DNA of 64,000 nucleotides from a virus (lineage: Duplodnaviria; Heunggongvirae; Uroviricota; Caudoviricetes): positions 1 through 64,000 of the IMG/VR virus record IMGVR_UViG_3300029983_000009. One strand, written 5' to 3'. Of the stretch, positions 8,045-11,690 are shown in pieces. The position numbers and the translations under genes were made by a program. Numbering within the stretch: the first letter of the stretch is position 1; the number at the start of each line of letters is the position of its first letter. The notes beneath the pieces were generated by a model that was given only the letters and a program-made list of their open reading frames with translations, was not told the DNA's origin and did not search any database.

Positions 8045-8257
8045 TTACTTATTTTTTAATATAGTTTTTAATTTATTCTGCAATATTATTACCATTTTAT
8101 ATGAATTATGTTTCCAACACTCATCATATGTCATCAATTTATTACATCTGGTACAGTTAGTTGTGTAATTAGTGTCTTTATTGCTCAGATCAATTTCACT
8201 ATCAATAAGCTTGATTAAATCTGGCTTATGTCCAAAAAATTTACATATTATATTCAT
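8045..8257 (-). CDS. small zinc-ribbon protein
   Basis: CKFFGHK…CTRCNK. Confidence 0.45.
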   Translation of the reverse strand: MNIICKFFGHKPDLIKLIDSEIDLSNKDTNYTTNCTRCNKLMTYDECWKHNSYKMVIILQNKLKTILKNK

Positions 8258-8471
8258 AATTATTTATTTTATTTAATTTATTTCTTCTTTGTTCAGATAA
8301 TAATAAAAATCTGGTTTCAGAATAAATGCAATTAAGATCATTTATTTTAATTCCTACTATCATAGAATCTGTTACAGTATAAACACAAAAATATTTCAAT
8401 TGATTTAATTTATTAAGATGATTCAAATTCTTATTATTTATACATTGAATTTTATCTCCTACTTTGAACAT
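8241..8471 (-). CDS. family B small protein (MFKVGDKVVCI… …RFLLLSEQRRNKLNKI)
   Basis: First of 14 tandem paralogs 8241-11690; KOW-like GDKVVCI N-terminus and Y/QRRxKLxxL tail. Confidence 0.55.
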   Translation of the reverse strand: MFKVGDKIQCINNKNLNHLNKLNQLKYFCVYTVTDSMIVGIKINDLNCIYSETRFLLLSEQRRNKLNKINNYEYNM

Positions 8472-8704
8472 TCCAATTGTTTTAATTTATTTCTTCTTTG
8501 TTCAGATAATAATACAAATCTATTACGGTCATAAAGAAAATCACGACAATTTATTTCAACACTATTCAGTTCTACACTTCCAACTCTAATACTATCGCAT
8601 TTAGTTACTATGTATATTTCAGTATAATTTAATGATAATGATTTATCAATATTTACCAGATTATCAATATCAATACAAACTAATTTATCTCCTACTTTGA
8701 ACAT
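8459..8704 (-). CDS. family B small protein
   Basis: Tandem paralog; start overlaps tail of upstream unit. Confidence 0.55.
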   Translation of the reverse strand: MFKVGDKLVCIDIDNLVNIDKSLSLNYTEIYIVTKCDSIRVGSVELNSVEINCRDFLYDRNRFVLLSEQRRNKLKQLECSK

Positions 8705-8928
8705 TCCAATTGTTTTAATCTATCTCTTCTTTGTTCTTTTAATAATATAAATCTTTTCATCTTATAAAAAATTTTAGTATCATTATCTATACGTATTTTA
8801 ACTCCATCTAATCCTGATGCATGAAAATCAATAACAAACAATACTAAATATGAACATTTTATTTTTAAGTGTTCAGAATTAATTTTACCTGGATTTACAC
8901 AAACTACTCTATCTCCTATTTTAACCAT
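8692..8928 (-). CDS. family B small protein
   Basis: Tandem paralog. Confidence 0.55.
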   Translation of the reverse strand: MVKIGDRVVCVNPGKINSEHLKIKCSYLVLFVIDFHASGLDGVKIRIDNDTKIFYKMKRFILLKEQRRDRLKQLECSK

Positions 8929-9146
8929 TATAATATGTTTAATTTATTAAGTTTTTGTTTTCTTATTTTTGATAATAGAACAAATCTATTAGAATTATAA
9001 AAATTATGTGTTTCAAATAACTCGGTAAAATCATCATCACTACTTTTTACAGTATAGACTTTATATTTATAGATATTAAGTAAAGGTTTCATTCTATTAA
9101 ATGGTATATCATTTATACAAACAACTCTATCTCCTACTTTGAACAT
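8928..9146 (-). CDS. family B small protein
   Basis: Tandem paralog. Confidence 0.55.
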   Translation of the reverse strand: MFKVGDRVVCINDIPFNRMKPLLNIYKYKVYTVKSSDDDFTELFETHNFYNSNRFVLLSKIRKQKLNKLNIL

Positions 9147-9358
9147 TTCATTAACTGATTAAGTTTAATTCTCCTGTGAGCTTTTAATGATACAAATCTT
9201 GTCTCTGAATAAAGATATATATTATCTTCAATCAATTTAACTGAATCATTTATATTTTCCGATATAATATAAATATTATTTTTTTTTATAAATAGAATTT
9301 TATTTGGAATTATTGACTTATCATTCACACAAACAACTCTTTCTCCTACTTTGAACAT
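9134..9358 (-). CDS. family B small protein
   Basis: Tandem paralog. Confidence 0.55.
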   Translation of the reverse strand: MFKVGERVVCVNDKSIIPNKILFIKKNNIYIISENINDSVKLIEDNIYLYSETRFVSLKAHRRIKLNQLMKCSK

Positions 9359-9564
9359 TTCATCAACTGATTAAGTTTAACTCTTCTATAAGCTTGTAAT
9401 GACATAAATCTATTAGAGTTGTAGCATATATTAGTTTCATGTAATCTAACCAATATACCACGAATCTCTGATATTGTATAAATATTATTTATTTTTAGAC
9501 TGTTTACATATGTATTCTTAACTAAGCCATTTATACAAGCAACTTTATCTCCTACTTTGAACAT
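9346..9564 (-). CDS. family B small protein
   Basis: Tandem paralog. Confidence 0.55.
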   Translation of the reverse strand: MFKVGDKVACINGLVKNTYVNSLKINNIYTISEIRGILVRLHETNICYNSNRFMSLQAYRRVKLNQLMKCSK

Positions 9565-9797
9565 TTCTTCAATTGATTAATTTTCTGCTTTCTATATTCT
9601 TTCAATAGAATGAATCTATATGATTTATAAACAATAGGATAATCTTTATAATTTACTATTCTAATCATTTCAAATCCAATACAAGCAATATAAATTTTAT
9701 TAATTTTTAATTCTCCAACTCTGTCATTATCAACACAAACTATTTTATCACCATTATAAAATCTATCGTTTTGATTTATTGCGATATAATCATACAT
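9552..9797 (-). CDS. family B small protein
   Basis: Tandem paralog. Confidence 0.55.
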   Translation of the reverse strand: MYDYIAINQNDRFYNGDKIVCVDNDRVGELKINKIYIACIGFEMIRIVNYKDYPIVYKSYRFILLKEYRKQKINQLKKCSK

Positions 9798-10014
9798 CTT
9801 CTATTCTTATTAGTTTCTGTTTTCTATATTCTTTTAATGTGATAAATCTTTGTGGAGTATAAGACATTGAAGATATGCAATGAACTTCTGTGTTAAATCT
9901 TACTGCAATATATGTCGTACCAGTTTTTAAAACATTTCCTAATCCTGAGTTATCAACACAAACAATTCTATCACCATCTTTAAAATGTTCAATTAATTTA
10001 ATATATTCACACAT
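9790..10014 (-). CDS. family B small protein
   Basis: Tandem paralog. Confidence 0.55.
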   Translation of the reverse strand: MCEYIKLIEHFKDGDRIVCVDNSGLGNVLKTGTTYIAVRFNTEVHCISSMSYTPQRFITLKEYRKQKLIRIEDV

Positions 10015-10274
10015 TTCTCAATTTTTAACAGTTTCTTTTTTCTATTATAATCAGATAATTTCATGAACCGATAAGATGGATAATAATAACAACCATTAAT
10101 TTCAGTAAAGAATAAAAGATCAGTATAATACTGAGTTCTCTTTCTGGTGTCATTATCAAAAAATATTCTAATAGTGTATATTTTATTGAGTTTCAATTCT
10201 CCAATTGTGAGTTTATCATTTTCACTGTGACTACCATTATCAACACAAATTACCTTATCATCTACCTTTAACAT
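9993..10274 (-). CDS. family B small protein
   Basis: Tandem paralog. Confidence 0.55.
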   Translation of the reverse strand: MLKVDDKVICVDNGSHSENDKLTIGELKLNKIYTIRIFFDNDTRKRTQYYTDLLFFTEINGCYYYPSYRFMKLSDYNRKKKLLKIEKCVNILN

Positions 10275-10738
10275 TTTTCTATTTCTAAGAGTTTATTTTT
10301 TCTATATTCAGATAATTTCATAAATCTATCAGGATAATATCTACCACCAGGCTGTTCATATAAATGTACATTTTCAACTATTTCATCATACTTATCAATA
10401 TATGGCACATAATTGGATATTGTATAAATATCTCCTTTTTTTAATGAATTAATTGTCTTGCCACTATTATCTATACATACAACTTTATCTCCAATTTTGA
10501 ATTTTTTATTGTATTCTGATAATAGCATAAATCTACTTGATGAGTAAATGCATCTATTATCAATCTCTTCGACAAATAAATAATCGTCATCATAATTAGT
10601 TTTTTTAGAATTAATTATATCATAAAACATCTTAATCGTATATGTTTTATTTAATATTAGATTTTTTATTGTATTATTATCTGTTTTAGTGTGGCTAATA
10701 ATATCAAAACAAACTACTTTATCCCCTACTTTTAACAT
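10268..10738 (-). CDS. family B two-unit fusion protein (156 aa)
   Basis: MLKVGDKVVCFD…RFMLLSEYNKKFKIGDKVVCIDNSG…RFMKLSEYRKNKLLEIEKC: two complete units fused in frame. Confidence 0.55.
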   Translation of the reverse strand: MLKVGDKVVCFDIISHTKTDNNTIKNLILNKTYTIKMFYDIINSKKTNYDDDYLFVEEIDNRCIYSSSRFMLLSEYNKKFKIGDKVVCIDNSGKTINSLKKGDIYTISNYVPYIDKYDEIVENVHLYEQPGGRYYPDRFMKLSEYRKNKLLEIEKC

Positions 10739-10995
10739 TTATCTATTTCTAAAAGTTTACGTTTTCTATATTCTTTATCAGTAATAAATCTATTTGAAGC
10801 ATAAATATATGAATGATTAATTTCATTAACTATTAAATAATCCTGATAATAAGAATATTCACAGCCAGTATTTCTATCAAAAAATATTTTAATTGAATAT
10901 TTTTTATTTAGAGATAAATGTTTTACTGTAAGTTTATCACTATTAGTATGACTAATAACATCAATACATACTATATAATCTTCTATTTTTAGCAC
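10732..10995 (-). CDS. family B small protein
   Basis: Tandem paralog. Confidence 0.55.
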   Translation of the reverse strand: MLKIEDYIVCIDVISHTNSDKLTVKHLSLNKKYSIKIFFDRNTGCEYSYYQDYLIVNEINHSYIYASNRFITDKEYRKRKLLEIDKC

Positions 10996-11222
10996 AGTTT
11001 TAATTTATTAAGTTTAAGTGTTCTATACTCAGATAATTTAACAAATTGAGTAGGACGCCAGTTTATTTCGCTATCATAAACATATACATTACCTAATGAA
11101 AGTTTAACTGATTCATAATAAACATCTCTTATAATATAATTAGTATATTTTTTTAATGCATAACGATTTTCATAATAACCTTCATCAGTTATACACACTA
11201 CTTTATTTCCTGATTTTAACAT
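10989..11222 (-). CDS. family B small protein
   Basis: Tandem paralog. Confidence 0.55.
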   Translation of the reverse strand: MLKSGNKVVCITDEGYYENRYALKKYTNYIIRDVYYESVKLSLGNVYVYDSEINWRPTQFVKLSEYRTLKLNKLKLC

Positions 11223-11466
11223 TTTTTATAATATTAAGTTTTTCTAATCTCACTTTTTTTATATAGTCAGGAATAGATAAAAATTTATATGACTCCTGAT
11301 TATATGCAACACCAACAAGTTTAAAATATTCAAGATCTTCATATAGATATACACTCTGATGAATATCTAATATTTCATATTCTTTTCCAATAATTAATTG
11401 ATCACAAATTATTCTGTCACTATCAAATGTTTTAATACAGACTACTTTATCTCCTATATTTAACAT
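11203..11466 (-). CDS. family B small protein
   Basis: Tandem paralog. Confidence 0.55.
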   Translation of the reverse strand: MLNIGDKVVCIKTFDSDRIICDQLIIGKEYEILDIHQSVYLYEDLEYFKLVGVAYNQESYKFLSIPDYIKKVRLEKLNIIKNVKIRK

Positions 11467-11690
11467 TCAGATAATTTTATAAGTTTTTTCTTTCTTAATT
11501 CACTCATTGACATAAAATGTCCATCTGAGAATGAGTAATTTGGTAATTCTTCTAAACTTATATCATAAGGATTCATGATAGTATATATTTTACCCTTTTT
11601 TAATAATTGTGTTTTAACATGATATCCATATAAATAATCATATTTATAATCATCTAGCAAACATAATACTTTCTCGCCTGTTTTAAACAT
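11460..11690 (-). CDS. family B small protein
   Basis: Tandem paralog, last of array. Confidence 0.55.
   Translation of the reverse strand: MFKTGEKVLCLLDDYKYDYLYGYHVKTQLLKKGKIYTIMNPYDISLEELPNYSFSDGHFMSMSELRKKKLIKLSEC

Follow-up and report, generated by a model that had tools for sequence, protein, structure and literature searches.

Small open reading frames (ORFs) in the hyperplastic regions of T4-type phages undergo indels and swaps through short, repeated PeSL cassettes (Arbiol et al. 2010, PMC2839356; Comeau et al. 2014, PMC4122927), and experiments with T4 under toxIN pressure showed that tifA is amplified segmentally by recombination at short homologies, with packaging limits forcing compensating deletions (Srikant et al. 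2022, PMC9391042). Bacillus phage G carries about 35 copies of a zinc ribbon, for which DNA-binding or regulatory roles have been proposed (Iyer et al. 2021, PMC7824862), and the internal proteins of T-even phages share a capsid targeting sequence (CTS) (PMC3012670). On tandem paralogues in huge or jumbo phages we found nothing specific in the literature. Here, we analyzed a 64,000-nt stretch of a Caudoviricetes virus (positions 1 to 64,000 of IMG/VR record IMGVR_UViG_3300029983_000009, hereafter the window), in which positions 8241 to 11690 hold a tandem array of small paralogous genes. The array is a dynamic multigene family rather than a dedicated cassette-shuffling device.

The array forms an unbroken run of 14 overlapping ORFs on the minus strand, which together contain 15 units of a single family (Table 1). 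GC content is about 22% across the whole window, and short overlapping ORFs of the same strand are packed through it. Using a hidden Markov model profile built from the array, we found at least 41 family members in the window, in several arrays and also as scattered single genes.

TABLE 1 Features of the window and of related contigs. Coordinates refer to the window unless a contig (L number) is named; sizes of array ORFs are in amino acids (aa), and contig and relative types are explained in the text
Feature	Coordinates	Strand	Remarks
Unit W01, 76 aa	11460..11690	minus	First gene of the array; ATG TTT start; no overlapping family ORF upstream; L015 ortholog 97% identical
Unit W02, 87 aa	11203..11466	minus	Orthologs B02 (85%) and A04 (75%)
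Unit W03, 77 aa	10989..11222	minus	
Unit W04, 87 aa	10732..10995	minus	GTG start; degenerate motifs VLKIEDYIVCI and RFITDKEY
Two-unit in-frame fusion ORF, 156 aa	10268..10738	minus	W05, 10505-10738 (without helix); W06, 10268-10504
Unit W07, 93 aa	9993..10274	minus	W07 type is the donor of the L015 gene-conversion tract
Unit W08, 74 aa	9790..10014	minus	N-terminal extension MCEYIKLIEHF ahead of the GD motif
Unit W09, 81 aa	9552..9797	minus	
Units W10 (9346-9564), W11 (9134-9358) and W12 (8928-9146); 72, 74 and 72 aa	8928..9564	minus	No A-type counterpart
Units W13 (8692-8928), W14 (8459-8704) and W15 (8241-8471); 78, 81 and 76 aa	8241..8928	minus	EQRR subtype
Family starts with TTC at codon 2 (examples)	9564, 9358, 9146, 8704, 8471	minus	
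Family starts with TTC at codon 2 (examples)	34969, 35205, 35420, 35930, 36169	plus	
Sole terminator-like hairpin in 7600-12200	7655..7692	minus	End of the minus-strand gene block holding the array
Second array	34733..36399	plus	Six family units and one unrelated cassette (35655-35954) with the same C-terminal helix and 25-nt overlap junction
39-bp tandem duplication (35930-35968 and 35969-36007)	35930..36007	plus	34/39 identical; first 13 codons of unit 35930-36193
Further family arrays	21982-22197, 23296-24871, 25968-27691	plus	Own junction type ATGAAAATAGGTGA, upstream tail ...NENR followed by the stop
Second small paralogue family (65, 60 and 58 aa; ...IESYVRKKKLxxINKK)	12108-12669	minus	Copy number differs among relatives: three in the window and L015, two in each of L011 and L017
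ORF regions with the helix motif (examples)	331-651, 2274-2972, 12108-12489, 22385-23299, 27681-28757, 32441-34757, 41323-42302, 48014-48539, 62593-62916		
Vault-like protein, 819 aa	4569-7028	plus	MVP shoulder, Vault_3 and SPFH/Band 7 domains; 1.2 kb from the array
Cytidylyltransferase-like genes (nicotinamide mononucleotide [NMN] adenylyltransferase type)	37766-38317 and 58562-59179	plus	
Homing-endonuclease-like gene	39175-40143	plus	
RNA ligase	40207-41211	plus	41% identical to the ligases of Microcystis phage Mic1 and of 735-kb uncultured phages
Phage Hsp70	L022 10616-12493	plus	Next to the L022 array
DnaJ-domain protein	L011 11817-12269	minus	Near the L011 array

The family consensus reads MFKxGDKVVCI...Y.I...RFxxLxEYRKxKLxKL. 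An AlphaFold2 model from a 95-sequence alignment, with a mean predicted local distance difference test (pLDDT) score of 90.2, has strands at residues 7-10, 28-35, 38-41, 47-49 and 53-55 and a helix at residues 56-71. Each unit is confidently predicted to fold as a five-stranded SH3/KOW-like β-barrel, behind which a basic amphipathic helix forms the C terminus. Net charge is close to neutral in the barrel part and about +3.4 in the helix part; isoelectric points in the family range from 4.6 to 10. The modelled barrel has the five strands of the SH3-like/KOW small barrels, such as ribosomal protein L24, the KOW domains of NusG/Spt5 and the N-terminal domain of Hpy99I, but differs from them in lacking sequence-level Pfam membership and in the added basic C-terminal helix, which is confined to this phage group. 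An exhaustive profile search returned 6187 clusters at 50% identity (E ≤ 1e-3), and its matches include proteins with up to 15 in-chain barrel repeats and no helix. Judged from these matches, the barrel is a widespread unnamed module, and only this phage group has it combined with the basic helix in gene arrays. Foldseek searches against viral models, including BFVD, returned uncharacterised phage proteins only and no functional name, and DUF6501 matched weakly 2 of 95 family members (best E = 4.6e-4, below the Pfam gathering threshold). Two adjacent chromosomal genes of Flavobacteriaceae bacterium F08102 (94 and 83 aa; contig L023, 3166-3828, minus strand) encode the FKVGDKVVCID barrel without the RKxKL helix. 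When 185,579 species genomes were searched with a degenerate DNA pattern, this locus was the sole match, and such barrel-only homologues do not identify the phage host.

The 156-aa ORF was described in the initial annotation as an exact in-frame fusion of two units, and this is borne out by the join (...SEYNKK/FKIGDKVVC...), at which W05 has lost its C-terminal helix and W06 its ATG. The resulting architecture is barrel-barrel-helix. The same annotation read the fusion as a sign of ongoing recombination. A related phage, however, retains the fused protein with 76% identity, and a distant homologue of the same architecture is 38% identical; the fusion is therefore ancient and gives no evidence of ongoing recombination.

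With boundaries aligned on the start codons, the genes lie head to tail, such that the helix-coding 3′ end of one unit abuts the 5′ end that encodes the β1 strand of the next. The start of the next unit is indeed embedded in the upstream ORF, as previously proposed: all starts lie inside or abut it, with the start codon 1 to 25 nt ahead of the upstream stop. Overlaps measure 1, 7, 8, 13, 20 or 22 nt in the 8241-11690 array; those of the plus-strand array are 13 or 25 nt long. The downstream gene opens with ATG TT(C/A) AA(A/G) GTA GGA GAT AAA GT, and the upstream frame ends correspondingly: ATGTTAA yields the tail ...C, ATGTTCAAAGTAG yields ...CSK and ATGTTCAAGCCAGGAGATAAAGTAG yields ...CSSQEIK, each followed by the stop. 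The C-terminal tag (...LCSSQEIK) that the junction had been thought to encode is therefore no independent feature. It is passive read-through, in which the N-terminal codons of the next gene are read out of frame to the first stop, and the Cys-Ser tail is absent from last-in-array and solitary members.

The boundaries had also been reported as nearly identical in DNA sequence, which did not hold. Conservation of the boundary DNA is moderate: around the starts, mean pairwise identity comes to 0.58-0.66 for the minus-strand array and 0.58-0.76 for the plus-strand array. By segment, it amounts to 0.71-0.81 over the first 12 codons, 0.58-0.64 over the last 20 codons and 0.43-0.49 over the core, in agreement with the view that the middles of the units are highly divergent. 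The 32-mer ttaatttatttcttctttgttcagataataat, given as an example for every minus-strand boundary, occurs exactly twice (8273-8304 and 8482-8513), within the helix-coding parts of W15 and W14, and is the longest exact repeat. The plus-strand motif is present at 35203, 35418, 35928, 35967 and 36167 with 0-3 mismatches, about 7 nt away from where it had been placed. Junction patterns are far above chance, with 0 matches in 100 shuffles. Correlations of pairwise identity among the N-terminal, core and C-terminal segments, comparing segments of the same ORF with those sharing a junction, were noisy and inconsistent over the four arrays.

Within the 8241-11690 array, no internal promoters or terminators above chance were detected: promoter-like sites over the array block numbered 43 versus 49 ± 6.6 expected. 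A Shine-Dalgarno (SD)-like 4-mer precedes only 4 of 188 genes, and the 20-nt leaders (−20 to −1) are 55-70% A and very G-poor, which suggests that genes of the window initiate translation independently of an SD sequence. SD-independent initiation is a Bacteroidota-like trait. Translational coupling of the array genes, as first proposed, is plausible, given that all units overlap, that internal promoters and terminators are no more frequent than chance and that SD-like sequences are so rare; the genes would be cotranscribed and coupled through SD-independent initiation or reinitiation.

Turnover of the units became apparent from related contigs. Ten contigs from JGI, ENA and Logan that encode the exact fused protein belong to the same strain; they come from several samples, are 99.9-100% identical to the window and share its unit order. 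Among relatives we distinguish an A type (L011-14, L019 and L020; vault-like protein 93-94% identical), a D type (L016-18; 90%) and contig L015, whose nucleotide identity to the window is 88-93%. The syntenic array comprises 15, 11 or 9 units among these phages: 10 ORFs with 11 units in the A type, and 9 units in the D type, where two are truncated before the helix (truncated units in L017) and no fused gene is present. Orthologs form a collinear backbone to which lineage-specific units are added, namely, W04 and W10-12 here and A01-03 in the A type. W04 is absent from the A-type and L015 arrays, and no counterpart was noted in the D type. In L015, the junction turns from W03 type to W05 type at the helix/ATG boundary, so that exactly W04 is removed, and a switch at this position is the hallmark of an unequal exchange within the junction. 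Furthermore, the first barrel of the fused gene in L015 follows its ortholog W05 except for a contiguous tract of about 65 nt, which matches a neighbouring unit (W07/B05 type) and is nearly identical to the donor. Since the A-type outgroup keeps the W05 state, this tract represents a recent gene conversion in the variable core.

The second array behaves similarly, with 6, 3 or 7-8 family units among relatives around a conserved unrelated cassette. A direct repeat at its unit starting at 35930 had been noted as a 33-bp junction duplication; the repeat is real but is an imperfect one of 39 bp, and as it was not seen in the relatives' counterparts, it is lineage specific. In the D-type contigs L029/L028 (3730-4073), a 113- to 117-aa helix-bearing gene ahead of the second array is split into ORFs of 46 and 68 aa, which looks like a frameshift or pseudogenisation. 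In the D-type contig L017, a 485-aa TnpB/OrfB_IS605 gene (Cas12f-like TNB; 18741-20198, minus strand) lies a few kilobases from the array and is absent from the matching part of the window.

These comparisons uphold the view that the arrays recombine, as unit counts differ between close relatives at both arrays, the W04 breakpoint falls in the junction and L015 carries the conversion tract. The notion that recombination is ongoing or recent, on the other hand, fared less well. The highest pairwise identity among units of the 8241-11690 array is 53%, indicating that the duplications are old and arose long before the split of these phages. Unit order is fixed in the ten same-strain assemblies.

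We consider it probable that the array represents a birth-and-death multigene family of lineage-specifically expanded proteins of about 75 aa. Turnover of its units by junction recombination and by gene conversion is shown by the comparisons: whole units are gained and lost when unequal homologous recombination breaks within the junction, gene conversion lets adjacent units patch one another, and in-frame fusions, partial duplications and truncations arise occasionally, while cocirculating relatives differentially retain old paralogues. The proteins could be dispensable accessory factors, such as host-takeover or anti-defence proteins or adaptors, whose variable loops would determine binding specificity, with the shared basic helix as a common handle for one partner.

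A different explanation is that the junction itself is selected, as an A-rich SD-independent leader, a termination-reinitiation site or a recombination linker, with the peptides being secondary. Leader composition favours it, because with leaders this rich in A and SD-like sequences this rare, the 3′ end of a gene must serve as the initiation region of the next; the W04 indel breakpoint in the junction and the occurrence of the same junction on unrelated cassettes point the same way. Nevertheless, we regard it as unlikely. Codon usage of the genome is extreme (AGA 80%, AAA 87%, GAT 90% and TTT 83%), and the motif codons (AGA, AAA and TTA) track it. We compared pairs of codons for the same amino acid and related the frequency of identical codons to the codon-usage expectation. 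Identity was 0.73 versus 0.61 expected within the array and 0.61 versus 0.61 between arrays; the corresponding ratios for the N-terminal, C-terminal and core segments were 1.19×, 1.12× and 1.06× within the array and 1.00×, 1.11× and 0.98× between the two arrays. Synonymous variation thus lies near the codon-usage expectation, and exactly on it for the N-terminal segment between arrays. Of the 52 occurrences of the RKxKL DNA pattern, moreover, 47 share the frame of the ORF in which they lie. Between the pattern and the next start there are 23 to 45 nt, with all three phases represented, and the pattern is found also on last-in-array genes and where a gap of 88-286 nt follows. The helix that it encodes belongs to a protein model with a confident fold. 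Because same-amino-acid codon identity is near expectation (1.0-1.2× at junctions), the pattern is in frame and its spacing is variable, the similarity of the junction DNA is almost entirely peptide conservation plus codon bias, contrary to the initial annotation, which had the junction conserved at the DNA level. Given its frame and spacing, we also rejected, as the main cause, the possibility that the RKxKL motif acts purely at the nucleotide level as a leader of the following gene.

Two further explanations concern the dynamics of the units. If the array were a static, ordinary paralogue family, in which ancient duplications merely drift with no recombination between units, the 53% ceiling on identity, the ancient fusion and the fixed order within the strain would all be expected; it is nonetheless very unlikely, since phages with neighbouring vault-like proteins 90-94% identical differ in unit number at both arrays, and since the recent conversion tract, the one-unit indel at a junction, the lineage-specific 39-bp duplication and the truncated units in L017 all stand against it. 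Conversely, a programmed cassette-shuffling or diversity-generating system, resembling antigenic-variation cassettes or diversity-generating retroelements and actively reassorting the units, would account for divergent cores between conserved boundaries, for copy number variation among relatives and for a conversion tract within a variable core. It would also fit the ortholog pair W02/B02, which differs by 13 amino-acid changes, mostly in loops, and 0 synonymous ones, a pattern suggestive of positive selection, though not significant alone. Such a system is, however, extremely improbable. There are no silent donor cassettes, each unit having its own start codon and an intact ORF, and no near-identical pair of template and variable repeats exists, the longest exact repeat being 32 nt and the best unit pair 53% identical. 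No reverse transcriptase, invertase or site-specific recombinase was found in the ORFs scanned with Pfam and PHROG, a sample of the window that includes the five longest ORFs and leaves most of those shorter than about 180 aa outside. Unit order is the same in the ten assemblies, and orthologous units are collinear between lineages. The ratio of nonsynonymous to synonymous substitution rates (dN/dS) for orthologous units ranges from 0.19 to 0.97 versus 0.08-0.26 in flanking genes; pooled, it is 0.46-0.50, equal in junction ends and core. These values indicate relaxed purifying selection without a core-focused diversification, and the earlier proposal of a cassette-shuffling or diversifying array is thus not sustained.

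Several results weigh against the birth-and-death reading or the functions suggested for its proteins. At the junction, a small DNA-level excess is left, with synonymous identity at 1.1-1.2× of expectation within arrays, and TTC is preferred over TTT at codon 2 in 16 of 18 units with the frame-1 upstream overlap A-TGT-TCA, compared with 17% TTC among Phe codons genome-wide; both speak for selection on the junction, and such selection may act at the RNA or DNA level to some degree. Many independent metagenome contigs (L001-L010) end inside 8690-11526, often near junctions (8690, 9165/9166, 9797-9811 and 11390), which may reflect repeat-induced assembly breaks or real structural heterogeneity. 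As for function, the units of the window match no Pfam family above the gathering threshold, KOW and SH3 included, their PHROG matches are limited to a weak one to phrog_14634, and tblastn of the consensus unit against 50,697 deposited phage genomes gave no match. Nucleic-acid binding by a basic barrel is unsupported, as the barrel is near neutral and the pI of the family spans 4.6-10. With regard to codon 2, we observed that TTT at this position would create a −1 slippery heptamer (T_TTA_AAG) just before the upstream stop, at which a shift leads into the downstream frame; the preference for TTC may represent avoidance of frameshift fusion.

The unusual feature of the locus is the shared C-terminal helix module, rather than the array as such. 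We searched the last 30 residues of the 191 window ORFs for the motif [RK][RKTNQ]x[KRQ][LIM]xx[LI] and found it in 78, versus 1.5 ± 1.3 in shuffles, with only 5 occurrences elsewhere. Thirty-nine of the carriers lie outside the barrel family; their N-terminal parts are unrelated, and they come from several other small paralogous families. When ten nonbarrel carriers were compared with PHROG, one matched a single-stranded DNA-binding (SSB)-like protein and the others none. Contig L022, a phage contig from another sample, contains an array of 23 cassettes that mixes barrel units with unrelated domains, all ending in (Y/M)RKxKLxKL with a 25-nt overlap; this array includes heterologous in-frame fusions and adjoins a phage Hsp70 gene. 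One tentative idea, which we think doubtful although worth stating, is that the (Y/I)RKxKLxxL helix might be a shared targeting or docking peptide that sends dozens of structurally unrelated small proteins (about 40% of the window ORFs) to one destination and, being encoded at each cassette boundary, also provides homology for swapping all kinds of cassettes into and out of the arrays. In function, it would then be the C-terminal counterpart of the T4 capsid targeting sequence or of the cargo peptides of encapsulins. Candidate destinations may be the virion or ejectome, the vault-like (MVP/SPFH) shell protein encoded nearby or the phage Hsp70/DnaJ of relatives; that Hsp70 or DnaJ would be a partner of Leu-rich basic C-terminal peptides is pure speculation.

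Among the described systems, the T4-type PeSL regions resemble the locus in their evolutionary behaviour: small nonessential ORFs gather in the plastic parts of large, myovirus-like genomes, and the indels that separate close relatives end in a short repeat at which homologous exchange takes place, even between unrelated cassettes, as seen here for the W04 indel. PeSL cassettes, however, consist of an intergenic promoter and a stem-loop terminator, whereas here there is no intergenic DNA, overlaps are 1-22 nt and the boundary is coding (helix plus N-terminal strand). The combination of a strong sigma-70-like early promoter and a stem-loop terminator between ORFs is not found either, as promoter-like sites show no excess and the hairpin lies outside the array. 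The T4 tifA case, from a large lytic phage, has in common that recombination has put small accessory genes into tandem; the tifA copies are recent, near identical and bounded by 6-10 bp microhomology, whereas those studied here are old, at most 53% identical and functionally diverged. Similarly, the array lacks the near-identical recent copies of a gene-amplification accordion (maximum 53%) and shares with it the copy number variation between relatives (15/11/9 and 6/3/7-8). A diversity-generating retroelement would bring a reverse transcriptase or recombinase, absent from the scanned ORF sample, and a template/variable repeat or silent donors, also absent. Like the expansion in Bacillus phage G, this one has dozens of copies of one small domain in one huge phage genome; unlike it, the domain is an SH3/KOW-like barrel plus helix, at least 41 copies occur in only 64 kb in overlapping, apparently coupled arrays, and unit turnover is documented between relatives. 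With the CTS, the helix has in common that a short terminal peptide is the sole common part of diverse, fast-evolving small accessory or defence-countering proteins (here 78 of 191 ORFs, 39 of them N-terminally unrelated). The CTS is N-terminal, whereas the motif here is C-terminal and helical. The prohead protease removes the CTS.

The genome that hosts the array is that of an uncultivated, very AT-rich huge phage, and the array lies in its accessory (hyperplastic) part. Related contigs listed as viral in IMG/VR are 208-256 kb long, and the JGI contig of one relative reaches 326 kb. Megablast of positions 4000-12000 against the 50,697 deposited phage genomes gave zero matches, and there are no cultivated relatives. 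Phage-like genes identified in the window by the Pfam and PHROG scans include an RNA ligase with a PHA02142 OB domain, a homing endonuclease, phrog_4243 and two cytidylyltransferase-like nucleotidyltransferases, along with a phosphoesterase. The vault-like protein is 90-94% identical across the related phages and under strong purifying selection (dN/dS 0.08-0.13).

Huge phages hold hundreds of small uncharacterised genes, and the origin and turnover of this "dark matter" are poorly documented. The locus provides a clear natural case of a birth-and-death multigene family in a phage, in which coding sequence, instead of a regulatory cassette, forms the boundary for recombination. It also carries a caution, since in a genome of 22% GC, conserved peptides mimic conserved DNA elements. 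Finally, many small proteins that are otherwise unrelated end in one and the same peptide module, the basic helix. If the targeting idea were true, a large share of the accessory proteome of this phage group would have one shared fate, and the helix would be usable as a portable tag.

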